This document shows positions 4,301 to 62,032 of a stretch of DNA of 64,000 nucleotides, one piece after another. Location: assembly GCF_964188315.1 (NCBI RefSeq), contig NC_135656.1, forward strand, positions 123,628,001 to 123,692,000, read 5' to 3'. A model generated the notes under the pieces. The model was given only the letters and a program-made list of their open reading frames with translations, had not been told where the DNA came from and did no database searches. Position 1 is the stretch's first letter. Each line of letters opens with the position of its first letter. Made by a program: the position numbers and the translations under genes. This DNA comes from Podarcis muralis. Its lineage: Eukaryota.

Positions 4301-7300
4301 ACCAGATTGGGTATGGCTGGAGTGTAGTAAGGTATTCCACATCTGTTTGGGCATAGAGACATGATACACAAGCAAACTGGGCACCAATTTCTGCAATAGG
4401 TGCAGATTTTGAAAGCAACACCAATGTCACTATTGGCAGATGTCATGGCAACTGTGATGGCCTGGGAATCTGATTCAGACCAGCTGCCGCCTCATTGGTC
4501 TTTCGACTGTGGCATAGACCTCCAGCCCGGGGTGCCCCTGCCTGTGAGTCGTCTGTACTCTCTTACGGAGCTGGAGCGCAAAGCTTTGCAGGACTTCCTG
4601 CGCAAGAACCTGAAGCGTGGGTTCATTCGGCCTTCCACCTCACCCACTGCTGCTCTAGTGCTCTTTGTTAAGAAGAAGTGTGAGGAGCTTCGTCTTTGCC
4701 ACGATTACCGGGCCCTGAACAAGATTACTACCACTTGCCCCTTATCTCGGAGTTGCTGGAGCGGTTGCAAGGGGCGCAGGTGTTCACCAAGCTAGACCTC
4801 CGGGGGGGCCTACAATTTGATTTGGATCCGAGCGAGGGATGAGTGGAAGACCGCATTCGGGACCCGGTATGGGCAGTTCAAATACCTGGTAATGCCTTTC
4901 GTATTGTGCAATGCGCCCGCCGTGTTCCAACAGTACATCAACCACGTGTTCCAGGACTTGCTAGACAAGTTCGTGGTGGTGTACCTAGATGACATTCTGA
5001 TTTTCTCCCATGACCCGGCTCACCACAAGGGGCATGTCCGGACCGTGCTGCAGTGCTTGCAGGAGCACCACCTGTATGCTAAGCTCAGCAATTGCGAGTT
5101 CCATCGGTAGACTTCCTAGGTCACCGACTCTCTCCAGATGGGGTGCAGATGGATCCTGGGAAGGTGGTTGCGGTTCGGGAGTGGGCAGCACCCCAGAACT
5201 GCAAGGACCTACAGCGGTTCCTGGGGTTCGCCAACTATTACCGGACCTTCATTGCAGGCTATGCTCATCGCACCACCCCGTTGACCTGACTGCTGCACCC
5301 CAAGGTGCCATTTTCCTGTGACAAGGAGGCAGAGGAGGCGTTTCAGAGGTTGAAAGCCTGTTTCCAGAGGGCGCCGATTCTGCAGCATCCCGACCCCTCG
5401 CCCCATCGTGGTGGAGACCGATGCCTCCAGCACGGCACTCGGCGCCGTCTTGTCCCAGCAGCACGGACCAGATGCGCCACTGTTACCTTGCACCTACTAT
5501 TCCCGCCAGCTCCTTCCAGCGGAGCATAACTATACTGTGTGGGAACGGGAACTACTGGCCATCAAGGTGGCCTTTGAGGTCTGGTGCCATCATCTTGAGG
5601 GGGCACGACACCCAGTGGAAGTGAGAACTGACCACCAGAACCTGGAGTACCTCCAAACCACCCGCAAGTTGAATCAAAGTCAGATCCGGTGGGCGCTGTT
5701 CCTCTCTCGGTTCCAGTTCTGGATCCTCTACATCCCTAGCTCCCAAAAGCAGAAGGCGGATGCCCTGTCCCGGAAACCTGAAGATGTCGCAGACACGGTA
5801 CAGCAAGCAGTACCAACCACGATTCTACCACCGGCCGAGTTCCTGGCCGCTCGGGAGGCTGAGCCACTGTGGGCTCGGGTGCGGGAACAGCAACGGGTCG
5901 ACGCTTGGGCTCGAGAACGACTCCGGGAACTGGCCGAAGGGTCATGCCCTCAGTATCCGGGACTGGTCGTGCACCAGGGCCTACTGCTACACCACGGTCG
6001 CCTGTACATCCCACCAGGACCACTGCGGGCTGAGGTTCTCCGGATGACTCATTACGCCCTAGCAGCGGGGCACTTCGGGCAGTATCGGACCACCCATCTG
6101 GTAAGCCGGGAGTTTTGGTGGCCCCGCCAGAAGGCTAACGTAGGCCAGGGGAGGCGAGTCGCCTGTGGGCCGGGACCGCCCCAGGCCTCAGAGGAGATAA
6201 AGGCCAGTCAGCCCAGTCCCAGGTTGCAGGAGCAACATCGTTGGAAACCTGTTCCTGCCAGCACCCTGACCTGCTCTTCTGGAGTTCCTGACCAGGCCAG
6301 GCTCCTTGCCTTGGACCCCGCTTTGCCCTTGACAGACAGCCTCCAGACTCTTGACCCAGGACCAGACTCAGACCATGCCGCACAGTAACCCCCCCCCCCG
6401 GGACCAGCACAGCAACAGATGACTTGTTTTATTGCTGATGTTCGTATGATGGTTTATGCCATGCTCCTGTTTGTTGTTAACTGTAATCTTAGTATTGCAG
6501 TTTGCAATACTATTGTAGCATAGAAATGTGAGATATCAATGTTAAGGGGGGTGGGGATGGGGGAAGCAGAAACATCCAAAAAAAATATCTTCCATGCAAC
6601 TCGGCAAAATATAAAGAGAAATGTAACTGTCCCAAAATAGGGCCTGGGGTCAACTTAGGACTGTGTCCAAAGGCAAAAATTCACCTATCACTTTCTCCTT
6701 AGTGCTCAATTTTCTCTTCATGCCTAGATGGTGCCTCGTTCAAGATGCACAGAAAGCTGTCTCCCTGGATATTCCAGAAAAGTTCAGGAAGGGAAGCCGC
6801 CCTGCTGCTATGATTGCGCTCCCTGCTCAGAAGGGACAATCTCCACTGTGGAAGGTAGGAGAGGATCTCAGAGGAAAGGGCCTTTGATGAGAAGATGGGG
6901 CAAATATTTGAGCCATTCCAAATAAGATGTTAATAACCATAATTAATGAGCAGTTTATATTTTATAGTCTCGCTGCATTATTTGTTCTCTAATACAAATG
7001 GACCTTCTAGTTTGTGGGGAGGGAGGGCCCCCTACACTATTCTATTCTATTCTATTCTATTCTATTCTATTCTATTCTATTCTATTCTATTCTATTCTAT
7101 TCTATTCTATATTCTATTGCTGGCTGTTCCCTCCCTTCTGTTTCTCTTTCCATTATCTCGTAGCTAGGTAACTCTGGCTTAATGTGCTCGGTGTCTGTGT
7201 CTCTCCCTCTTCAGAGAGGAGCCGATCTGCCTGAGAACGCATTCCCCAATCCTCTGATTCAGACCGTTCCCTGACAGGCACCTCTTTTTGTAGAAAATAG

Positions 7301-39200: not shown

Positions 39201-42200
39201 TTGAATAAATCTATCAGCATCTTTCACATAGAAGTATTCCATCTTAATCCTGAAATACAAGCCATCTCTTTCGCTTTCCTCACCAGCTCAGTTATGGCTT
39301 TGCTCTTACTGATAAATTCCAGTCCCCTTTTGTCTACCAAATGGCCCCAAACCAAGAAACGCAGTACCAAGGGATGGTGCAACTCCTCCTGCATTTCAGG
39401 TGGACATGGGTTGGCCTCTTTGCTCCAGACAATGACAATGGGGAAAGCTTCCTGAGTACCTTGACACCTCTAATGAACAAAAGGGAAATTTGTGTTGCCT
39501 TCACACAAAGAGTACAACGAGAAACGTGGCTATGGATACCCCATGAAGCACCTGCCCTGTGGAGACAAGTCAATGTATTTGTTTACTTTGCAGACTCTCA
39601 AAGTGGACTTTACATAATCATAGAGGTACAGTCCTTACTTGAAAGGATACAGACTGGGGGGAAAGTCTGGATAACCACACTTCTTCAGAACAAAATGTTG
39701 TTACGTGGTATTGACTGCTTCCAGTATGCCCATGGCTCTTTGTCCTTTGTAATGAAGACCAAAAAAAGGATGAAGAAGGACTACTATGGGCCAATGTCCT
39801 TGGCTAGTCAACAGTATTCAGAAGAAGCATTTGATTGTTCATATTTAAAGCATGCCTTGTCTGTGAGGGGTATGACCAAATGCAGAGAGAAGGATAATGT
39901 GAAGATGCTGCCCCAGGAAGAGATTGAAAGAATCCAGTCCCAAGACAGCTATGTGAATTACTTGAGTATCCAAACTGTGGCTCAAGCTTTAAATGCCGCA
40001 TATTCATCCAGGTCAAAGAGGATGTCGATTGTGGGTGGAGGCAGTTTGGATCTTCAAAAGCTACAGCCATGGCAGGTAATAATCTAGCATGGTCAGATGA
40101 ATCCAGGCGAGAGATACAGAGAAGATTAGCATGCAGAGGGAACATGAAACCATGTTACATAATTCAGCCCTGCTTACTCATTCCTGGATTTCCCCCCGTC
40201 ATTCTAGTTTCATCGTTTCTTGAAAGAAGTCCAGTTCTACTCTAATACTTCAGCTGATGGACAGTACCTGGATGAGAATGGAGCACTGGCCGTTGACTTT
40301 GATATCGTGAATTGGGTGCTGTTTCCTAATAACTCTCATGATAGAGTGAAAATTGGGAGAATAGAGAGACTAAAGTCCTCAAATCTGAAGTTCACCATTA
40401 ACCCAGAAGCAATTGTGTGGCCCAAGCGATTTAAGAAGGTAGGAAAAATCGGATCTGTCATTTTATTATCTATGACATCTGCTATGCTCTAATAACATTT
40501 TGAATAGTACATATGAGGCTTTGACTGCAATCTTGTGGATGCTTTCTTGAAGCATTCAAAGCCTGCCAAGGAGTCCAGTTCGCTTTGTTGCTTCTTTAAA
40601 TACTTTGTAAAAGCTTCCCATTCATCTTTAAAGTCGCAGTTATCCTTGTCCTGTAGTTTATGTGCCAATTTTGCCAGTTCTGCATAGTCCATCAGTTTCT
40701 CTTGCCATAGTTCTTTAGTCGGGGTTTCCTCGTTCTTCCATCCTTGTGCTATTAAGACTCTCGCTACTGTTGTCGCAGACATGAAGATATTTTTCAACTT
40801 CTTTTCCTACAATCCCTAACAGAAATGCTTCAGGTTTCTTAACAAATGTTAGATAGAACATTTTCTTCAATTCATTGTATATCATTTCAATTTTTTAAAA
40901 TTTCATTACAATCCCACCACATATGGTAAAATGTCCCCTCCTTTTCCTTACACTTCCAACACATATTTGAGCTAGTTTTATACATTTTTCCTAACTGCAC
41001 TGTAGTCATATACCATCTATACATTATCTTCATATAATTTTCTTTCAGCAAAGAACAATCTGTAAATTTGAAATCAATTTTCCATTTGTTGTTTAGTCGT
41101 TTAGTCGTGTCCGACTCTTCGTGACCCCATGGACCAGAGCACGCCAGGCACGCCTGTCTTCCACTGCCTCCTGCAGTTTGGTCAAACTCATGTTTGTAGC
41201 TTCGAGAACACTGTCCAACCATCTCATCCTCTGTCGTCCCCTTCTCCTTGTGCCCTCAATCTTTCCCAACATCAGGGTCTTTTCCAGGGAGTCTTTTCTT
41301 CTCATGAGGTGGCCAAAGTCTTGGAGCCTCAGCTTCATGATCTGTCCTTCCAGTGAGCACTCAGGGCTGATTTCCTTAAGAATGGATGCAATTGATCTTC
41401 TTGCGGTCCATGGGACTCTCAAGAGTCTTCTCCAGCACCATAATTCAAAAGCATCAATTCTTCGGTGATCAGCCTTCTTGATGGTCCAGCTCTCACTTCC
41501 ATACATCACTACTGGGAAAACCATGGCTTTAACTATACGGACCTTTGTTGGCAAGGTGATGTCTCTCCTTTTTAATATGCTGTCTAGGTTTGCCATCGCC
41601 TTTCTCCCAAGGAGCAGGCGTCTTTTAATTTCGTGGCTGCTGTCACCATCTGCAGTGATCACGGAGCCCAAGAAAGTAAAATCTCTCACTGCCTCCATTT
41701 CTTCCCCTTCTATTTGCCAGGATGTGAAGGGACCAGTGGCCATGATCTTTGTTTTTTTGATGTTGAGCTTCAAACCATATTTTGCGCTCTCCTCTTTCAC
41801 CCTCATTAAAAGGTTCTTTAATTCCTCCTCACTTTCTGCCATCAAGGTTGTGTCATCTGCATAACTGAGGTTGTTGATATTTCTTCCGGCGATCTTAATT
41901 CCGGCTTGGGATTCATCCAGCCCAGCCTTTCGCATGATGAATTCTGCATATAAATTAAATAAGCAGGGAGACAATATACAGCCTTGCCGTACTCCTTTCC
42001 CAATTTTGAACCAGTCAGTTGTTCCTTATCCAGTTCTAACTGTAGCTTCTTGTCCCACGTAGAGATTTCTCAGGAGACAGATGAGGTGATCAGGCACTCC
42101 CATTTCTTTAAGAACTTGCCATAGTTTGCTGTGGTCAACACAAAGGCTTTTGCATAGTCAATGAAGCAGAAGTAGATGTCTTTCTGGAACTCTCTAGCTT

Positions 42201-45200
42201 TCTCCATAATCCAGCGCATGTTTGCAATTTGGTCTCTGGTTCTTCTGCCCCTTCGAAATCCAGCTTGCACTTCTGGGAGTTCTCGGTCCACATACTGCTT
42301 AAGCCTGCCTTGTAAAATTTTAAACATAACTTTGCTAGTGTGTGAAATGAGTGCAATTGTGCGGTAGCTGGAGCATTCTTTGGCACTGCCCTTCTTTGGG
42401 ACTGGGATGTAGACTGATCTTCTCCAATCCTCTGGCCACTGCTGAGTTTTCCAAATTTGCTGGCATATTGAGTGTAGCACCTTAACAGCATCATCGTTTA
42501 AAATTTTAAATAGTTCAGCTGGAATATAATCACTTCCACTGGTCTCGTTATTAGCAGTGCTTTCTAAGGCCCATTTGACTTCACTCTCCAGGATGTCTGG
42601 CTCAAGGTCAGCAGCCACACTACCTGGGGTATAAGAGACGTCCATATCTTTCCGGTATAATTCCTCTGTGTATTCTTGCCACCTCTTCTTGATGTCTTCT
42701 GCTTCTGTTAGGTCCTTTCCACTTTTGCCTTTTATTATCATAATCTTTGTACAAAATGTTCCTTTCATATCTCCAATTTTCTTGAAGAGATCTCTGGTTT
42801 TTCCCATTCTATTGTTTTCCTCTATTTCTTTGCATTGCTCGTTTAAGAAGGCCTTCTTGTCTCTCCTTGCTATTTTTTGGAAATCTCATCCAGTCCCTGA
42901 TCCATACCAAACAAGCAGATTCATAATACAATTTAAGGTCTGGGAGGGCAAACCCACCTCTATCTTTTACATCTGTAAGTTTTATGGACTTCAATCTCAA
43001 TGTTTTGTTCTAATTCGGTTCTTTCTTCTTCCTTCATGTTTTTAACTAATAATTTAGTTTTATTCCTATTTAACTTAAATCCTGCAACTTCCTCAAATTT
43101 CTGAATCTTTTCTATTACTTTAGGGAGTGACATTTTGGGTTCTTCCACTGTTATCACTAAATCATCTGCATATGCTTTTAACTTGAACTCACTTTTCCCA
43201 GTTTTTGCACCTATAATCTCTTTGTCTGCTCTTATATTTCTGGCAAGTACTTCCAGTACCAGGATGAATAGTAATGGTGATAATGGGCATCCTTGTCTTG
43301 TTCCTTTTTGAATCTTACAATCGTCCGTTATCACCTGATTTATAATTAATTCTGCTTTTTGTTCTGAATAAATTGCTGCTATTCCTTTTAAAAATTTAGA
43401 ACCACATCTAATTTGTTCTAAAAACTTTGTCAGGAATTTCCAAGAAATATTATGAAGGCTTTTTCAGCATTTATAAACATCATTGCTGCTTTCCTTTCAC
43501 TTTTAGCCTCCAGGTATTCTATTATATTCAAAATATTTCTTATATTCTCCTTCATTTGCCTACCTGGTAAAAACCCTGCCTGATCTTGATGTATATATTC
43601 ATTTAGTATTTTTTTTTTTTTTAGTCTATTGGCTAATATATTTGCAAACAATTCCATTTCAGTGTTAAAGGCGGGGGGATCAGAAGAACCTAAAAGGTTT
43701 CTCTGCCATGCAGCTCTGCAAAAAATCAAAGAAAAAAGTAACTGTCCAAAATATGGTCTGGGGTCACCTGAGGTTATTGGAAGCAAATATCTCCTCTCCG
43801 GGATCCTTCCAAAATTCTATTATCTGTGTCCAAAGGCATAAATGCACCTTTCACTTTCTCCTTAATGCTCAATTTTCTCTTCATGCCTAGATGGTGCCTC
43901 GTTCAAGATGCACAGAAAGCTGTTTCCCTGGATATTCCAGAAAAGTTCAGGAAGGGAAGCCGCCCTGCTGCTATGATTGTTCTCCCTGCTCAGAAGGGAC
44001 CATCTCCACTCAGGAAGGTAGGAGAGGAACTCAGAGAAAATGGCCTTTGTTGGGAGGATGGGGCAAATATTTGAGCCACTGCAATGGCTAGTTCCATCAT
44101 CTGTCAGGTGGGGACCATTGGCATTCTCAGAGAACAATGGAGGCATTCATGATGAGTTCAAACACTGTCAGGTGTGGACAGTCCTCGCCTCCCTTTGGTA
44201 ACTGCACAGATAATAATTAATGAACCATTTATAATTTATACTCTTTTTATTCCGTCATCTGGCTGCAAGCAAAGATCCACATCCCTCCACAAGGAGAGCA
44301 GTTGGCTACTCTAAATCCTCCCCCTTCTACCCCGCTCAACATCCTGGCGCCAACAAGAAGTTCCTCCTGCTCGCTGCATCCTTTGTTCTCTAATACGTAT
44401 GGACTTCTTAGTTTGTGGGGAGGGAGGGTCCCCCAGACTCTCCTATGACATCCTTGCTCGCTGTTGCCTCCCTTCTGTTCTCTTTCCATTATCTCGTAGC
44501 TAGGTAATGCTGGTCTAATCTGCTCGGTGTCTGTGTCTCTCCCTCTTCAGAGAGGAGCTGATCTGCCTGAGAATGCATTTCCCAATCCTCTGATTCAGAC
44601 CATTCACTGACAGGCACCTCTTTTTCTAGAAAATAGCACTGGAAATAATAAAGTAAAGTAAAGTAAAGTAAAGTAAAGTAAAAAGTAGCACCTTAGAGAC
44701 CAACTAAGTTTGTTCTAGGTCTGAGCTTTCATGTGCATGCACACTTCTTCAGATACTCTGAAACAGAAGTCACCAGACCCTTATATATAGTGGTAGGGTG
44801 GGGTGGGGTATTTCTCATAAGGGTACTAGGGCATGGCTGATTAGCTCAATGGGTAAACCTGCTGAAGACTGATAACAACTGCAATTAGTCATACAGGAAA
44901 AAAGCAGGGGACAATATGCAGGTGACTAAAAATAGCTTTTGCATGTGTAATGAGATATGAATCCATTGTCTCTGTTCAGACCAGGTTTCTCCATAGTTTT
45001 CCCTTCTGAGAAATATCCCAACCCACCCTCCCACTATATATAAGGGTCTGGTGACTTCTCTTTTTCAGAGTATCTGAAGAAGTGTACATGCACACGAAAG
45101 CTCAGACTTAGAACAAACTTAGTCGTTCTCTAATGTGCTACTAGACTATTTTTGTATTTTACTTTTTTATTTCGATGGCATCCAACCAACATGGCTACCT

Positions 45201-48960: not shown

Positions 48961-49214
48961 CAGTCTGTTTCCCCGAAAATAAGACAGTGTCTTATATTTA
49001 TTTTAGCTCCCAAAGATGCAATAGGTCTTATTTTCAGGGGGTGTCTTATTTTCCCATGAAGAAGAATACGGTACACATTTATTGTTGAACAAAAAAAAAG
49101 GAAATTTATTACCTGTATACGGTACAATGTGCACGACTCCTGCCCCGCACGACTCACTCACTGTCTAAATGTGAGTCAGCCAGACTCCGTCAGGGCAGAG
49201 CGAGCAGCAGGCGC

Positions 49215-50372
49215 TGTAGCACCCTGCTTGTGGTTAACGCTTAGCTGGAATGAAATATTCAACGCAGCAACAGAGAAATTAAAATAATAATTTATTTGTC
49301 AGACAAATAAATGTGAGGCACAGTGGTATATGATTACCAAGCTCTGGCCTGCCTCCTGCCATTATGGCCAGCACTTATATTTCCTTAATCCAGCCCCCTT
49401 TGCTCCTCTTGTGGCTGCATCTGCCCAACCAGCCTGGTTGGATTTCCTATTGGCTGATTGCTATGACCAATCACAAAAATACACTCATTTCCTATTGCCT
49501 TTTATGGGAGACAAAGAGCTATATTTCCTTCCATTTATAATTGACAAACAAGTATTAATATATCTTTACATGTGTCTCAACAAGGAATCTTAATTACCAG
49601 CTCACCTCCTGCCCTCCTTGCCCTACTGCCTTCTAAAACAAACGGTTAATCTTAAATTTTTATCTTGAACAGATGTCAGAGACCTTGGGTTCATATTCTC
49701 ATGCATCATCAATGAAATATCTCCTTTTGGAGGTCTTTAAACAAAGGCCCGACAGCCATCTGTCATAAGTGCCCGCTGGCGTCTTTCTGTCTTGCAGGGG
49801 AGCTGACTTAAATACAACTCTTACAACTATATGAAATAAGAATCTAGCATTTCTTAAATCCTTTGCATAATTACATTTAAGCCAGCATATTTCATACATA
49901 ACATATATAGCTTTTTAGAAGGATAAATCTCCTCAAAGTAAAAGGAAGGAACAGTTTACAGCCTCAAAATAAAAGTGAAGGAAAAAGTCTATTCCCCTGT
50001 TTACACTCCCCTCCTTCTCCAGCCAGTTGTTTAGTTTTCCGTGTGCTCTTGGCCTTTTGTCCTGTGGCTCAAGTTTAAGAGAGGCCCAGGGTATCATTTT
50101 ACTGTTTACCCACTCTTAATTATGTAGGGTCTGTGTAACCTTGGTCTTCAGCCTGTAATTCCAGCTTTTACGACTTTGAGAATTGTTTTCTGCTATAAAT
50201 CAAGGGGGCCCCTTGTCTAGGAGGAAAACATTGCCAGTGTTTTCTTAAGCAGCTGGTCTGCCTGGCATGAAACTTTTATGAATTCAAGCCCTTTTTAGAC
50301 TTTTTGAACCTGATCAAAATATAAGTCAATATAGACCTTGATTAAAAATGCAGTCTATATTCAGATGCCACA
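49215..50372 (-). repeat. ERV 3' LTR
   Basis: Direct repeat of 54438-55595; adjoins the PPT. Confidence 0.96.
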
Positions 50373-51800
50373 TTCCCCCCTTTCAAGCTCAAGGACCTTG
50401 CTTCACACCAAGGTCCTTGATAGCTTGATCTTATGCCACATTCCTGAGGTAAGGCTCTGTATAGGGCCATGATATGAGGTAAAGTTTCATTTGAAACCAT
50501 CTTGCTAATTGTACTTCTAAAACATGAAATGATACATGGCATCATACATAAAACCATTACCACTACTGTCAAGAAAAACAAGCAAGACAATAGTATCCCT
50601 TTGAGTCCTGTGACATTAGGTAACCAATTGGTGAGCCATCCCATATCCCATCCTTCCTTGTGGCCAACACACGGATTGCCTCACCATTATCAGAAATGTT
50701 AAAGCAACAGGCATTCCCTGTCAAGTTCAAGACTCCACATAGACCTCCCTGCTTGGCAAGTACATAATCCATTCCCATTTTCAGCTGCAAAATGGGGCTC
50801 TACTTTCATCCAACTGTTGTGCAATAAGTCTCAAACTCTGGGCCGTTGCATTGGTTACAAGTTCCTCTACTGCTTGTAATTGAATTATTCTGTTTAGATT
50901 ATAAATAGGATCCCGTGCCCCTTGTATGAGCTCACCAGGATTCCAGGAGGCAGGATCATAATAGGCTATAATGCGCTCTGGCGGCCAATCATCAGTACCG
51001 CTCCAACTTTGGGTACTTCCTCCTGCTATACGAGAAATATCAGCATTCCTTCGTGTTCGCTTAGCTGAACTAGTGGGCAAATCCACATTGGTGGTAATAC
51101 CCATCCCAGGAAACAAGTCCCACTCCATTTGGAAGGGAGTTTCTTGTATGCCCATTCTCCACATATCCACCACAACCATCGGGTCTGAGGTTTTTGGTAC
51201 GTGGAGTACAGAAGGCGAAAATATCAAAAGAGGCAGAGAGTTCACAGCGCAGTATGTTAGATTGCCTTTTTCTGTCACAGTTGTGTTCCATACCACTTTC
51301 CATGCATGAATAAAAGGAGGTGCACAGGGCAAGGTATTCCAAGTTCGATAGGTAGTACCGTGTGCCCAGGTATGACTATTCTTAATATAATCCCAAGTAT
51401 AGTGACAATGAGAAGAGCCTATCATAGTAGAATCAGCTGCATCTGATGATTTATGTACACAGAATTCCCCTTGTACAGGTATAACTCGTAATGGTTTAGT
51501 TGAGTTCCATCCGGGGAAATTCTGTATTTCTGTTTGGTGTGGCATTTCGCTTACCATACCAATGGCATCTAATGGTATCGGTAATAAGGGCATACCTCCC
51601 TCTGAATCATCTGGCCCAAGAGAGCAAACAAGGCAATTGGTCCTATTTGCAACATTGGCTACCATTTCAGCTAAACCTACCCACATATTGTGGTCATGGC
51701 TGAATCCATATTTAGCAAATTTGGTCAGATTCAAGGACCCTTCCCCTTCCCAAGGGATCAGGATTAATAATAAAATCATGTTGATGTCTAGCATATGCAT
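50342..51800 (-). pseudogene. env: ERV env (frameshifted; longest ORF 51800-50781, 339 aa)
   Basis: Signal peptide, NCLVC, furin-like KRTRR, and WPPERIIAYY...IYNLNRIIQLQAV (ERV3-like). ISD-like LQLKMGMDYVLAKQGGLC and the TM anchor lie in two other frames. Confidence 0.9.
50373..50384 (-). promoter_or_regulatory. Polypurine tract
   Basis: GAAAGGGGGGAA immediately before the 3' LTR. Confidence 0.9.
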
Positions 51801-52111
51801 TCCTTCCACAAAAGATTACCTTATTGTGATAGCATAAAACTATTAGTCCCAATATAATTCCCCCAGTGACAGAAATGGGGAACCACCAAGACCAAAACAT
51901 ATATCCCAAGGATCCCCAATGTGTAATATCTCTGATAATTGTTCCACAAGGGGGCAGTCAATCAATTGTATAAGAGAATCTTCCCTTTCACAATCGCTGG
52001 TTCAGATGCTCCTCAAGCTTCAGGCGTGCGCAGGTCAGCCAGCTTCCAGATTGTGGCTGCAGCAGGCCGGTCGTCTAATGTTGCCCGTGACCTAGCCCGT
52101 TCCCCGTAGGG

Positions 52112-52610
52112 CTAGATACAGGGGTTTTTGGAGAGAGTCAGTTTTAAAGGATTAGAGGGGTCACCTTTGCACGTCCAACTGCCTTCGGACTTCTTCAAAC
52201 GGGAGTGATGAATCCAGGGGGTCACCTCAGCTACCTTCACCGCTGTTGGAGTAGAGAGCAAGACGGTGTAAGGTCCACGCCACTTAGGTGCAAGTGGATC
52301 ACGTCTCCACTCTTTCACCCATATGCTATGCCAGCCTGGAGCTGATGAATCTGCTCAGCAATGCTGCACGGCGTGTGCTTGAGGGCCCACCTGTTAAGAT
52401 AAAAAAACAAACAAACACGGGAGAGAGACAAAAACACGGGAGAGAGATTGCACTTGTCCCTGTGTCACATGGTCTCCTATTTGTTTGAGGTCAGTTGGAA
52501 TATCCTGAACAAAGGAGGGCGGCCTCCCATACAGGAGCTCAAAAGGTGACAACTTAAGTCTTTTGTGGGTGCACACCGAACACGAAACAGTGTTATGGGT
52601 AACACATCTA
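52112..52610 (-). pseudogene. pol: Integrase C-terminal remnant of pol
   Basis: VLPITLFRVRCAP, LSPFELLYGRPP, KWRGPYTVLLSTPTAVKV...WIHHSRLK. Confidence 0.88.
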
Positions 52611-52614
52611 CCCT

Positions 52615-53937
52615 CCTGAGACTTTAGACATATTAGTGGGCTTCTGGCATGCCCTGCAGATACCTTGCACAAGCGTCTGGCGGTAGGTGGTAAGCCTGGC
52701 CAGGTGAATTGCATTGTTTGGATCCCAATTAGGATCTTCCAAGGGAAAGTTGTCTTGGAGATGACGGTCAATATTATAAATATTTCCCACTCTGGCCTGC
52801 TCACGCAAATATATCTGTGCCTTTTCAATTATGTCTCTCCTTTCCTCAGTGGTGAAGAGAGTATTCAGGAGCTGGCGACAATCTGTCCAAGTAGGACTAT
52901 GAGTATTTACTATTGAGGTCACGAAGTCCATCATAGTCTGAGGTTTTTCTGCGAAAGATGGGGCGTTTTCCAATTCATCAGACTGTAGTTGTGAATGGAA
53001 TACATTGCAGGGTCGAAGTTCGAGGTGGCCGTGGTCCAGGTTGCCCATTAACCAGCACAGGCTCCTCAAGTGCATCAAATACTCTTCTGAGAGGGGCTAC
53101 TACGTGACCTTTTTCTTCACTTTGCTCTAGGGGCCTCAAATCATAGGGGATGGTATTTGTCCCAAGGCGTTCTTTTAACAGCTTAATACGCCTGGCTGTA
53201 TTGCTTGCTGACCGATTAAGGTCTCCCTGTAACTTCTGTAATAATTCTCTAGGACTTGGATGTACAGGGGTTTGGGGTAGGCAATCAGTTGTTCCACTAA
53301 AAGAGACTGTAGATGGAGTTCTACTGGGACTCACAGATGGAATAACCACTTCTGCTTGGGCTTCATTATAGGACTCCAATGCCTCCTGAAGATATTTATC
53401 ATAATCTATCAAGGAGTCAAGTTCTGTGTCTCTACCCCCATTATTCGTTCCACTTTCTTGCCTTGGGGTTACAACTGGTGGAGGGTTTGAATTAGGCTCC
53501 CTTCGATGTGGAGCATAGAGTGGAGGTGGAAACACCTCTTCCTCTGGTCCCTCAAAAATGGGTTTGAGTTTATTTGGCAAGATTCCTTTCCTAGCTTCGG
53601 CTTTTACAGCCAATAATTTGCATCGTTGGACTTTGCATTCCCTTATCCATGGAGGATTTTTATTTAATGTGCTCAGCCAGGAATCTATATATGAAAATTG
53701 TTCTGGGCACCCTCCAGTTTCTTTGGTGATGTTAGACCAAAGTTTGCTTACTAAATTTATATCAAAGGTTCCCTGAGATGGCCATTCAGTATTTTGTTTT
53801 GGCCATTCTAGTTCACATAACGTTCTCAAGCGCCCTGGCGTCATTTTGACTCCATATGCCCCTGAGAAGGCTTTCTTAAAATTATTTAACATACATTCAA
53901 GAGGTGTATTTCCCCCCTTTGAACCCCCAACTCCCAT
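52615..53937 (-). pseudogene. gag: ERV gag (MA-p12-partial CA), frameshifted and truncated
   Basis: MGVGGSK myristoylation motif, LRTLCELEWP, PPLY late domain, and CA motifs THSPTWTDCRQLL.TLFTTEERR, PNWDPN, KPTNMSKV. Confidence 0.9.
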
Positions 53938-54413
53938 TGTATGGCCCTGTGAAGTATCCACTCAGTCACTCACACACACACCTTACTGGGAAACGAAGTA
54001 GTACTCACTCCACACTTAGGTCAGTTACACATTGTACTTTCTCACACATGCAATGCGCTAGATACTTCAACCACACTCTACCTCCCAATCTTCCCTTTTG
54101 CCCTACACCAGATCACCATCTGATGTACCCAGCCACCTAGCGTACTCAGTTCCCCTTTACTGAGACGCAGAAGTTTGATCAGGACTTCTCTTCCTCCCAA
54201 TTAATTGGAGGGCCAAAACCCTTTAGTGCACTTACCCTTAGCTGGTTCCGTTTCCCCCCGGTCCGTCGCCGTCGGTGGGCAGGGTATCAGACAGACGAGA
54301 CTGCTGCGTTCCCCTGGAAAAAATTTTTCCATTGCGCGCTGGGTAGGCAGTGTGGTCCTCTGTCTTGTACCCCGTCCAGTAAGGCGAAGGGGCTGCGTTC
54401 CAGCAGACCACTG

Positions 54414-54432
54414 ATCCGAGTCGCAGGCACCA
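54414..54432 (-). promoter_or_regulatory. Primer-binding site, tRNA-His-like
   Basis: TGGTGCCTGCGACTCGGAT versus TGGTGCCGTGACTCGGAT (complement of the vertebrate tRNA-His 3' end), 5 nt inside the LTR. Confidence 0.7.
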
Positions 54433-54437
54433 TAAAA

Positions 54438-55595
54438 TGTAGCACCCTGCTTGTGGTTAACGCTTAGCTGGAATGAAATATTCAACGCAGCAACAGAGAA
54501 ATTAAAATAATAATTTATTTGTCAGACAAATAAATGTGAGGCACAGTGGTATATGATTACCAAGCTCTGGCCTGCCTCCTGCCATTATGGCCAGCACTTA
54601 TATTTCCTTAATCCAGCCCCCTTTGCTCCTCTTGTGGCTGCATCTGCCCAACCAGCCTGGTTGGATTTCCTATTGGCTGATTGCTATGACCAATCACAAA
54701 AATACACTCATTTCCTATTGCCTTTTATGGGAGACAAAGAGCTATATTTCCTTCCATTTATAATTGACAAACAAGTATTAATATATCTTTACATGTGTCT
54801 CAACAAGGAATCTTAATTACCAGCTCACCTCCTGCCCTCCTTGCCCTACTGCCTTCTAAAACAAACGGTTAATCTTAAATTTTTATCTTGAACAGATGTC
54901 AGAGACCTTGGGTTCATATTCTCATGCATCATCAATGAAATATCTCCTTTTGGAGGTCTTTAAACAAAGGCCCGACAGCCATCTGTCATAAGTGCCCGCT
55001 GGCGTCTTTCTGTCTTGCAGGGGAGCTGACTTAAATACAACTCTTACAACTATATGAAATAAGAATCTAGCATTTCTTAAATCCTTTGCATAATTACATT
55101 TAAGCCAGCATATTTCATACATAACATATATAGCTTTTTAGAAGGATAAATCTCCTCAAAGTAAAAGGAAGGAACAGTTTACAGCCTCAAAATAAAAGTG
55201 AAGGAAAAAGTCTATTCCCCTGTTTACACTCCCCTCCTTCTCCAGCCAGTTGTTTAGTTTTCCGTGTGCTCTTGGCCTTTTGTCCTGTGGCTCAAGTTTA
55301 AGAGAGGCCCAGGGTATCATTTTACTGTTTACCCACTCTTAATTATGTAGGGTCTGTGTAACCTTGGTCTTCAGCCTGTAATTCCAGCTTTTACGACTTT
55401 GAGAATTGTTTTCTGCTATAAATCAAGGGGGCCCCTTGTCTAGGAGGAAAACATTGCCAGTGTTTTCTTAAGCAGCTGGTCTGCCTGGCATGAAACTTTT
55501 ATGAATTCAAGCCCTTTTTAGACTTTTTGAACCTGATCAAAATATAAGTCAATATAGACCTTGATTAAAAATGCAGTCTATATTCAGATGCCACA
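54438..55595 (-). repeat. ERV 5' LTR
   Basis: Direct repeat of 49215-50372, with CCAAT-like, ATATAA and AATAAA signals in order on the minus strand. Confidence 0.96.
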
Positions 55596-55880
55596 GCGCC
55601 AGCTTGTCCTGGTGTCGGCGTGGGCTCTCTGATTTAAAGAGACTTCACACTGTCTGAACAGCTCCGGCTCTGCTGCGGCTAATCAGTGAGTTGCGCAGCG
55701 GCGCCCGCCACTACAGTCCAGAGGAGACACCTTATGGTAGCTTCGGGGGCCTTATATTCTGGGGTGGCCTTATTATCAGGGAGGCCTTATATTTGGGGAG
55801 GGCCTTATATTACAGCGGGAGGCAAAACTGGAAGTAGGTCTTATTTTCAGGGGATGTCTTACTTTCGGGGAAACAGGTTA

Positions 55881-59455: not shown

Positions 59456-60337
59456 ACTACGTTAAAACATATCAAAAGCCCTGCTGGATCGAGAAGATGA
59501 CCCACTTTTGGCTTGTCTTCTGCAATTTCACCCATTTACCCATGTTTCTGTGGAGAGACATTGCCTCCAGTCCGCCCTTCCCTGCCCATTGCTAGGCAGG
59601 TTGTAGGCAGAGATACCTTTTTCTTTTCTTTTTTACCTTTACGCAGAGATAACTACATCCCACTCCTCCTCTCCATTCCTCCAGAGTCCCAGTATTAACC
59701 ACTATATTTATTCTCATGTCTTTGGGATTTAAGGGAACAGGAAGATTGCTACTGAAATTCAGGGGTTCCTGTAGTCCATTATTACAATTGATTGAATTTG
59801 TTAGTCCCTTTAGTTTACCAGGTCAACCCAAAGAAACTTGCAACCAAACATTTTAGTGATTAGGACAAAATTGTCATTGGGAATTCTGAACCGGAGAAAT
59901 AAATAGCAGGATTAGGGAGAGAGAGAAGCTCCCTTTCCGGTGAGGAACCTCTGTATTTAAATTGGCAATTCAAGAGAACCAGTGTATCTAGGATCATGCT
60001 GCATTATTAACGATACTTGATCATGATTAAAAGTTGATGATGCATTACTATTCTCTGACATTATTTCATTTCCTAAAAAATAGGAACATAGAAAAAGGAA
60101 GAGTGTAGGAGATGTTAAATTAAGAGAAGGTACCAAAGGCACTTGATGTGTGTTATATTCCTTTGTTCTCTTCTTTACAGGATTTCCTTTCCCCCTACTC
60201 GGAAGCAAGCGATAGAAAGGACAGTCAGAGCAATCTGTACTTTCATTAGGAATCACAAATAAACCATTTCAATATATGGAATAAACAACGTGATTCAGTC
60301 AATGAACACACTTAGTTCACATCAATGAACTGAAACA

Positions 60338-62032
60338 ATGGAGATACCGCTTAAAGGTATGGATTGTGGCAAGGACATCTGTGGGAGTGGAACTCCTACA
60401 AAACATCAAGGAACTCACACAGGGGAAAAACCATTTAAATGCATGGAGTGTGGAACATGCTTCCGTCATGGACAATCGCTAAGAAGGCATCAATATACTC
60501 ATACAGGGGAGAAACCATATAAATGTTTTGAGTGTGGAAAATGCTTCACACAGAGTGGAAACCTCTATATACATATGCGAACTCACACGGGAGAGAAACC
60601 ATTTAAATGTATGGAGTGTGGGAAGAGCTTCCTTTTGAGTAATCAACTTAATGCACATCATCAAACTCACACGGGAGAGAAACGATTCAGATGTATGGAG
60701 TGCGGAAAGAGCTTCTCTCAGAGTGGACAGCTTAAAAGACATCAGCGAAGTCACACAGGGGGAAAACCATTTAAATGCATAGAGTGTGGGAAGTGCTTCA
60801 TCGATAGTGGAACACTTAGAAAACATCAACGAACTCACACAGGGGGGAAACCATTTAAATGCATAGAGTGTGGGAAGTGCTTCAGTCAGAGTGGAATCCT
60901 TAAATACCATCAACGAACTCACACAGGGGAAAAGCCATTTAAATGCACAGAGTGTGGAAAGAGCTTCTCTCGGAGTGGACACCTTAAAAACCATCAACGA
61001 ACTCACACAGGGCAGAAACCATTTGAATGCATGGAGTGTGGAACAAGCTTCCGTCATAGAGAATCACTAATAATGCATCAATGTACTCATACAGGGGGAA
61101 AACCATATAAATGTTTTGAGCGTGGAAAGAGCTTCCTTTTGAGTAATCACCTTAATGCCCATCATCAAACTCACACTGGAGAGAAACCATTCAGATGTAT
61201 GGAGTGCGGAAAGAGCTTCTCTCGGAGAGGACAGCTTAAAAAACATCAGCGAACTCACACAGGGGGAAAACCATTTAAATGCATAGAGTGTGGAAAGAGC
61301 TTCAGTCGGAGTGGAAACCTTAGAAAACATCAATGGACTCACACAGGGGAGGAACCATTTAAATGCATAGAGTGTGGAAAGAGCTTCACAGAGAGTGGAA
61401 TCCTTAAAAAGCATCAACAAACTCACACAGGGGAAAAGCCATTTAAATGCATGGAGTGTGGAAAGAGCTTCAGTCAGCGTGGAAACCTTAAATACCATCA
61501 ACGAACTCACACAGGGGAAAAACCATTTAAATGCATAGAGTGTGGAAAGAGCTTCAGTCAGAGTGGATACCTTAAATACCATCAACGAACTCACACAGGG
61601 GAAAAACCATTTAAATGCATAGAGTGTGGAAAGAGCTTCTCTTTGAGTGGACACCTGAAAAACCATCAACAAACTCACACAGGGCAGAAACCATTTAAAT
61701 GCATGGATTGTGGGAGAAGCTTCACTAGAAGTGGAACGCTTAGAAGACATCAACGAATTCACACAGGGCAGAAACCGTTTGAATGCATGGAGTGTGGAAA
61801 ATACTTCCGTCATACACATTCGCTAAGAATGCATCAATTTTCTCATACAGGAGAGAAACCATATAAATGCATGGAGTGTGGAAAATGCTTCGGTCAGAGT
61901 TCGAGCCTTAATGCACATCTACAAATTCACACAAGGGAGAAACCTTTTAAATGCATGGATTGTGGGGGAAGCTTCACTAGAAGTGGAACGCTTAGAAGAC
62001 ATCAGCAAACTCACAGGGGAAAAACAATTTAA
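60338..62032 (+). CDS. C2H2 zinc-finger protein, 564 aa, 19 tandem fingers (finger 9 degenerate)
   Basis: 28-aa CxxC-x12-HxxxH repeats with TGEKP linkers; ATG in a strong context (aacaATGG); AATAAA at 62051. No KRAB exon recognised in the window. Confidence 0.9.
   Translation: MEIPLKGMDCGKDICGSGTPTKHQGTHTGEKPFKCMECGTCFRHGQSLRRHQYTHTGEKPYKCFECGKCFTQSGNLYIHMRTHTGEKPFKCMECGKSFLLSNQLNAHHQTHTGEKRFRCMECGKSFSQSGQLKRHQRSHTGGKPFKCIECGKCFIDSGTLRKHQRTHTGGKPFKCIECGKCFSQSGILKYHQRTHTGEKPFKCTECGKSFSRSGHLKNHQRTHTGQKPFECMECGTSFRHRESLIMHQCTHTGGKPYKCFERGKSFLLSNHLNAHHQTHTGEKPFRCMECGKSFSRRGQLKKHQRTHTGGKPFKCIECGKSFSRSGNLRKHQWTHTGEEPFKCIECGKSFTESGILKKHQQTHTGEKPFKCMECGKSFSQRGNLKYHQRTHTGEKPFKCIECGKSFSQSGYLKYHQRTHTGEKPFKCIECGKSFSLSGHLKNHQQTHTGQKPFKCMDCGRSFTRSGTLRRHQRIHTGQKPFECMECGKYFRHTHSLRMHQFSHTGEKPYKCMECGKCFGQSSSLNAHLQIHTREKPFKCMDCGGSFTRSGTLRRHQQTHRGKTI

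Follow-up and report, generated by a model that had tools for sequence, protein, structure and literature searches.

A 64,000-nucleotide stretch of the Podarcis muralis genome (assembly GCF_964188315.1, contig NC_135656.1, positions 123,628,001 to 123,692,000; hereafter the window, in whose coordinates positions are given) carries on its minus strand an endogenous retrovirus (ERV) from which most of gag-pol is missing. This provirus is one of 138 copies marked by a single 3.7-kb gag-pol deletion, and we consider it very probable that these were packaged, reverse-transcribed and integrated by the proteins of 137 undeleted copies of the same family.

The two long terminal repeats (LTRs) of the provirus align without a single difference over 1158 bp, the match stopping exactly at both element edges, as a preliminary description of this DNA had claimed. 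Of the primer-binding site (PBS), polypurine tract and target-site duplication, all considered intact in that description, the latter two stand, the duplication being GCGC, i.e. 4 bp rather than 5; the PBS departs from a perfect tRNA complement by an extra base and a mismatch. Compared with undeleted copies, gag joins the integrase (IN) at about 52613-52615, with a net loss of 3712 nt (3727 minus 15) between the middle of capsid and the late part of integrase. Pfam searches of the window frames recover Gag_MA, Gag_p30 (profile positions 8-123 of 201 only) and MLVIN_C, the integrase C-terminal domain, besides weak matches in the env frames; for protease, reverse transcriptase (RT) and RNase H there is no Pfam match in the 10 window frames scanned, and the C-terminal half of capsid is absent too. 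The profile searches and the comparison with undeleted copies thus bear out the earlier claim that nucleocapsid, protease, RT, RNase H and the IN core are gone, gag passing into the IN tail at about 52615. The gag remnant is open for 319 codons, its frame being destroyed by the loss of 1 nt near 52982 and of 4 nt near 52966, and env breaks near 51221, 51079, 50795, 50657 and 50436-50403. The frameshifts previously noted in gag and env are real, but they are not all of 1 nt: they include the 4-nt loss in gag and a 37-nt loss in env, and the IN tail has a 25-nt gain.

The exact junction pattern occurs 138 times genome-wide and the exact undeleted gag continuation 137 times (control 0 for each), i.e. 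at about 1:1. A lineage with a common deletion, to be sought through its gag-IN junction, had been proposed beforehand, and the search recovers it, many of the siblings also sharing the indels of the window copy; a DNA search with the junction yielded 422 candidates, of which 40 were scored, and all 40 matched over their full length at 98-100%. The deleted copies studied comprise the 39 best siblings and, as a guard against bias, 20 more taken by list position from the 100 listed. LTR pairs were measurable in 36 of the first 40 (window copy included; four with an incomplete or doubled 5' LTR were left out) and in 19 of the 20. They are identical in 33 of these 55 copies, with 25 substitutions in 66,032 bases overall, and 52 of the 55 show 4-bp target duplications, at different sites. 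Across the family LTR pairs diverge by 0.04% on average. For the deleted copies the mean age is about 15,000 generations and, for the window copy, the 95% ceiling is about 100,000, at a rate of 1.25e-8 per generation borrowed from snakes (PMC12758475); these ages would be underestimates in the event of gene conversion or assembly smoothing, and overestimates in that of RT or sequencing errors.

The coding damage is largely common property of the lineage. With one natural pol-bearing copy as the coordinate reference for indels, the 1-nt and 4-nt losses in gag recur in 19/37 and 27/37 siblings and in 0/19 pol-bearing copies, the three IN-tail indels in 1/39, 11/39 and 36/39 siblings (0/18, 1/18 and 1/18 pol-bearing), and each of the env changes in 8-20 of 39 siblings (0/18 pol-bearing). 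Because the indels of the window copy in gag, the IN tail and env all recur in deleted siblings, the damage is inherited rather than an assembly error and, as had been suspected, older than the integration.

The window Gag is 93% identical to a Podarcis raffonei gag-pol model (P0002), and with this model as query all 35 loci scored were matches at 96-99%, revealing the pol-bearing class. In 20 of these loci gag spans 638-642 codons throughout, and env 481 codons in 18. Among 20 undeleted copies picked by list position, pol is kept in 19 and uninterrupted in 16 (a single TAG, behind which the frame stays open as far as the end of pol), the others being one unclear at the very end, two with early stops and one with another deletion; TAG is the first stop in all 20, gag and pol sharing one frame. 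The LTR pairs of this class, with 8/19 identical and 10 substitutions in 23,479 bases, and those of the deleted copies are equally young. The intact-pol helper that the preliminary description had postulated is therefore at hand as a class of 137 undeleted matches, most of those sampled having an uninterrupted pol. Copy L144 shows a different pol deletion of about 2 kb, possibly a second deletion lineage.

As to affinities, the best solved matches of P0002 are p80 RT/RNase H chains of the murine leukaemia virus (MLV)/XMRV group (E 1e-233), compared with 1e-47 for Pr125Pol chains. The family shows the features of a class I (gamma-like) ERV: gamma-type matrix, p30 and IN C-terminal domains, an RT nearest to the MLV group, a PBS and polypurine tract, TG...CA termini and a 4-bp target duplication, the latter typical of the MLV group. 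Its transmembrane subunit (TM) has CX9CC rather than the CX6CC of the genus Gammaretrovirus, and we regard the family as gamma-like only, claiming no membership in that genus. In 18 of 19 pol-bearing copies Env combines a CXXC at 56 and a furin site that ends at 251 with CX9CC in TM and a short surface subunit (SU); it conforms to group 1 of the EnvR supergroup, for which Podarcis Env is described as having CX9CC, a CXXC about 40 residues from the mature start and a short SU (bioRxiv 10.1101/2024.03.17.585361), although the spacing from CXXC to the cleavage site is about 190 here against about 175 in the described group. A genome search with PF16721 gave no matches and its controls were silent too, making it uninformative.

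The two classes share much of their variation outside the deletion. Association of single-nucleotide polymorphisms (SNPs) with class is complete 122 nt past the junction (r2 = 1.0), 0.85 at 86 and 182 nt and 0.65-0.72 at 224-285 nt, and falls to at most 0.49 in the greater part of env, with 0.56-0.60 in a leader block. In two SNP sets, 88/148 and 75/131 segregate in both classes, and among deleted copies all four gametes are found in 41-81% of site pairs; neighbouring sites are incompatible less often than shuffled ones (0.24 vs 0.58 and 0.34 vs 0.52), none of 1000 shuffles being as low. A tree of 55 LTRs requires 10 class changes, at least 7 of them forced by strong branches, against 16 in shuffles: the classes are clustered but do not form one clade. 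Individual copies illustrate the exchange, namely a deleted one (L051) whose LTR is identical to that of two pol-bearing copies and which has no other indel of the lineage, and a pol-bearing one that holds the IN-tail indels of the deleted lineage. Deleted and pol-bearing copies have thus recombined in both directions, the footprint to be expected of co-packaging. In the same 55 LTRs U3 is hypervariable, with a mean pairwise difference of up to 34% and lengths of 1040-1353 bp, and the R-U5 end differs by less than 1%.

Four RNA runs of the same species label were compared with positions 50380-54430, using 6-12% of each run. First mates of the two bulk runs map predominantly to the plus strand, which in most stranded libraries corresponds to the proviral sense. 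Reads with a 43-nt gap (2 and 8) and a 77-nt gap (4 and 10) match gag deletions that are each found in 8/37 deleted siblings and 0/19 pol-bearing copies; likewise, a variant at 52620 is seen in 8/16 and 13/14 RNA reads, in 11/38 deleted junctions and in none among the 100 undeleted matches listed. Markers of the deleted lineage thus occur in the RNA of other animals. Other reads depart at 52613 into integrase sequence, and therefore pol-bearing copies are transcribed too; the reads mostly come without the rarer alleles of the window copy and so give no evidence of expression from the window locus itself. Eight reads of run X24 depart at 54236, the splice donor in the leader. In runs X23 and X24, over 51080-51600, reads diverge from the window within SU, with 6-nt and 130-nt gaps, suggesting expressed env variants of another subfamily. 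The pyrimidine tract before the acceptor-like CAG (52390-52450) is lengthened, to many different lengths, in 39/40 and 19/20 deleted copies and in 1/19 pol-bearing ones; its role as a stronger env acceptor is not supported, the depth dropping over 52305-52352 with no sharp end or donor-acceptor joint in the part of the tables covered. A word search of indexed runs found 20 holders in 8 studies sharing 0.60-0.79 of the words of a query that includes sequence common to both classes and hence is not evidence for the junction; among the indexed runs listed, no holder was recorded as RNA.

These observations lead to the proposal that the deletion arose once, probably by a template jump during reverse transcription, as GTAGA is present close to either breakpoint and the joint shows a two-base irregularity; an origin as a splice product was set aside since the joined letters, judged by eye, do not suit a donor-acceptor cut. 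The deleted RNA would have retained only the cis-acting parts, i.e. the LTRs, PBS, leader and polypurine tract, and helper Gag would have packaged it, often alongside helper RNA. Template switching may then have shifted the junction between LTR and env backgrounds, and gag of the deleted copies would decay near neutrally because helper protein stands in. The earlier idea of a non-autonomous genome copied in trans gains support from the same junction, the young LTR pairs, the pol-bearing copies and the mosaic haplotypes. The lineage also has what marks a non-autonomous ERV: no coding capacity for RT or IN, many independent insertions with the same lesion, a coding relative of the same age with the same cis signals, and recombination with it.

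Several points weigh against this proposal. Co-packaging is deduced from the recombination signal, part of which gene conversion between proviruses could give. The env of the deleted copies is not fully neutral (ratio of nonsynonymous to synonymous polymorphism, pN/pS, 0.60; p = 0.015 vs neutral), and some junctions lie in tandem arrays, so that 138 slightly overstates the independent insertions. When 19 of the approximately 137 pol-bearing copies were compared, a pol-bearing LTR at 98% or more was available for only 4/36 deleted copies; the window LTR is 97% like the nearest deleted one but only 85% like the nearest of the 19, and its direct helper was therefore not identified among them. Either much of the deleted lineage has its own LTR types or the helpers fell outside the sample.

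Such LTRs with no close pol-bearing match in the sample also bear on the source of the helper, which might be an exogenous relative: deleted genomes would have entered the germline as defective particles together with the complete virus, the endogenous pol-bearing copies being fellow passengers. The open env of 18/20 pol-bearing copies with its CXXC, furin site and CX9CC motifs, and the great diversity of U3, would suit this, and defective KoRV-D/E genomes of the koala retrovirus (KoRV) have been suggested to spread so (PMC5696478). Nevertheless, we deem an exogenous helper unlikely, though worth serious consideration, given the many endogenous copies with open frames and the transcription of the family; no exogenous form came to light, although no search was aimed at one, and it would still be complementation in trans, only the source being different.

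The coding state of the deleted copies bears on whether they are kept for a product of their own, be it a truncated Gag acting in cis as in the mouse intracisternal A-particle (IAP) form 1Δ1, an Env, or a host restriction factor. A gag of 444 codons open to the junction is present in 3/40 copies of the first sample, and env of 477-481 codons is kept in 9/32 measured copies and in 4/20 of the second sample. However, gag is broken within 16-347 codons in most copies, none of the 20 sampled by position reaches the junction (3/60 overall), and gag variants restricted to deleted copies have a pN/pS of 0.87, for which neutrality is not rejected (p = 0.60), as against 0.15 for variants found in both classes (Fisher p = 4e-6). 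For env, the corresponding values are 0.60 for deleted-only variants and 0.35 for variants found in both classes, and the classes do not differ significantly (p = 0.17). The open-frame copies resemble helper backgrounds in LTR and leader, and recent recombination explains them; retention for an own product thus seems very unlikely. No sign of APOBEC-like editing emerged, deleted-only G>A changes not exceeding C>T (gag 19 vs 25; env 16 vs 25).

A further line of evidence comes from the PBS, which was compared with the tRNA-His(GUG) genes of the genome as located by pattern and by ARAGORN. It matches tRNA-His perfectly in 13 of 77 copies (L031-L135; p = 3e-9 vs one half), the remainder having 1-3 extra bases. 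On a tree of the flanks built without the PBS, and approximate because of recombination, 13 separate changes are required to account for the perfect sites (shuffled mean 12.2). A bulged copy is found among the nearest neighbours of every one, in four cases at distance 0; the perfect sites are scattered tips that form no clade. This is as expected if the tRNA-His primer is copied back in each round, and the scatter shows reverse transcription of the deleted genomes independently of the LTRs. The perfect sites being far below one half and devoid of a clade suggests, in addition, that their bearers seldom give rise to further copies, or that the bulged strand is preferred in repair. A single exact pattern was used to look for a variant tRNA-His gene that would fit the bulged PBS, and its six matches all proved to be ordinary tRNA-His ends.

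The same scatter of perfect sites argues against multiplication of the deleted copies as DNA, by segmental or tandem duplication and gene conversion, with no helper virus. A few tandem arrays do exist, and gene conversion can give LTR pairs a young appearance and produce mosaic haplotypes. Yet 52/55 deleted copies have a target duplication of their own, and LTRs are near-identical within a copy but differ by a median of 12% between copies, a pattern that needs reverse transcription; we hold DNA-level multiplication to be largely refuted and highly improbable. The arrays, in which deleted proviruses have LTRs in common, are found at C5:3291475-3312490 (five units 5247 bp apart) and C1:26734926-26740058, and copy L038 has a doubled 5' LTR. 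Exact LTR-end matches number 739 genome-wide, against about 550 expected from 275 proviruses, an excess that indicates a small proportion of solo LTRs or other forms and suits a young family. That deletion and frameshifts arose at the window locus after integration, or are assembly errors, has practically no chance of being right, and for the junction and the widespread indels is refuted: several indels are of a single base, a common long-read error class, and the loss at 52564 is found in only 1/39 siblings, but the same junction recurs at 138 places with the same indels in many siblings, 16/20 pol-bearing copies of the same assembly are clean through pol, and short RNA reads of other animals hold the 43- and 77-nt lineage deletions.

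The mechanism proposed for this lineage, a real, young, helper-dependent ERV lineage, is already known from several systems, compared here as they are described in the parts of the sources drawn upon. Mouse IAP 1Δ1 likewise has one common internal gag-pol deletion, is non-autonomous and needs gag and pol in trans (PMC6466679); it differs in being a class II element with no env and an in-frame loss of 1.9 kb that leaves a gag-pol fusion acting in cis, whereas the lizard lineage has lost 3.7 kb, has a stop directly after the junction, and hence no open gag-pol fusion, and couples a decaying gag to a gamma-like helper with open env. In the cattle C-/D-type ERVK[2-1-LTR], competent and defective forms are found in one genome with four-gamete recombination, a linkage peak at the boundary and a mismatched PBS (PMC10924933), all as in the lizard; there, the beta-like D-type arose by an old retroelement segment being swapped in and accounts for 85% of copies, in contrast to the plain deletion, the ratio of about 1:1 and the gamma-like character of the reptile lineage. 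The mouse ETn/MusD pair too comprises a non-coding passenger and a coding helper, with perfect and imperfect PBS scattered on the tree, a pattern interpreted as tRNA-templated reversion (PMC7472051); the interior of ETn is foreign and its common PBS has two mismatches, unlike the lizard variants with their extra bases. Gamma-type helpers move non-coding genomes in the cases of VL30 with MLV and of recKoRV and KoRV-D/E with KoRV (PMC6466679, PMC5696478), but VL30 and recKoRV have interiors of other origin and the lizard lineage derives wholly from its helper. KoRV, a young invasion with 133 sites in one koala (PMC6466679, PMC5696478), is similar in size to the lizard family.

The features of the provirus are collected in Table 1.

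Table 1. Features of the provirus and its borders, in window coordinates.
Feature	Position	Strand	Basis or remark
Provirus	49215-55595	-	whole element
5' LTR, 1158 bp, TG...CA	54438-55595	-	same as 3' LTR
3' LTR, 1158 bp; AATAAA at 49296-49291	49215-50372	-	LTR comparison
Target-site duplication GCGC, left copy	49211-49214	.	
Target-site duplication GCGC, right copy	55596-55599	.	
PBS, tRNA-His type, one extra base and one mismatch; 5-nt spacer behind LTR	54414-54432	-	
Polypurine tract	50373-50383	-	
Leader (predicted packaging region), splice donor after 54236	53938-54413	-	motif; packaging role predicted
gag remnant, matrix to first half of capsid	52615-53937	-	Pfam PF01140, PF02093
gag-IN deletion junction, common to 138 copies; stop codon right behind	52607-52621	-	
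Integrase tail remnant, breaks near 52564, 52428, 52329	52109-52613	-	PF18697
Pyrimidine tract with acceptor-like CAG at end, longer in deleted copies	52390-52450	-	acceptor use putative
env remnant (EnvR supergroup group 1 type)	50395-51800	-	lower end approximate

The provirus is inserted in a small element with 22-nt inverted ends (48965-48986 and 55855-55876), possibly akin to a non-autonomous DNA transposon. To its left (1379-47662) lies a cluster of class C G protein-coupled receptor exons (ANF_receptor, 7tm_3), likely of the V2R type, and to its right (60329-62032) a C2H2 zinc-finger exon of 567 codons. Other retroelement remnants in the window are located at 5354-6388 and 41093-42885, with an RNase H/integrase frame and RT frames.

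Among titles and abstract openings, most subscription journals and supplements being outside the scope, we found no literature on this reptile gamma-like family apart from its env group; section 6 of the EnvR preprint (bioRxiv 10.1101/2024.03.17.585361) treats Podarcis Env structure, and that section gives no copy number, age or deleted form. Young helper/passenger ERV pairs have been described from a few mammals (mouse, cattle, koala), to which one assembly now adds a reptile case in which the two partners are about equally numerous and recombination and primer-site reversion can be read from the copies. Its main appeal lies in a reptile family that is, as a whole, so large and so young, and in the primer-site pattern.

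The findings point to a germline invasion that is recent, may still be under way, and carries a parasite along. More tentatively, we see it as a possibility, with the balance somewhat against it, that a gamma-like retrovirus is invading the lizard germline now, with about a hundred coding-competent proviruses per genome, that one deletion mutant, by hitchhiking and by swapping LTRs, has become as numerous, and that copies with a perfect tRNA-His PBS are almost never parents. If the last were true, it would mean that retroviruses are silenced through the primer site in reptiles, as in mice, and the family could test whether such silencing extends beyond mammals. The young insertions would be usable as population markers, and wild populations could test whether defective passengers throttle an invading retrovirus, as a 'parasite of a parasite' (PMC10924933).

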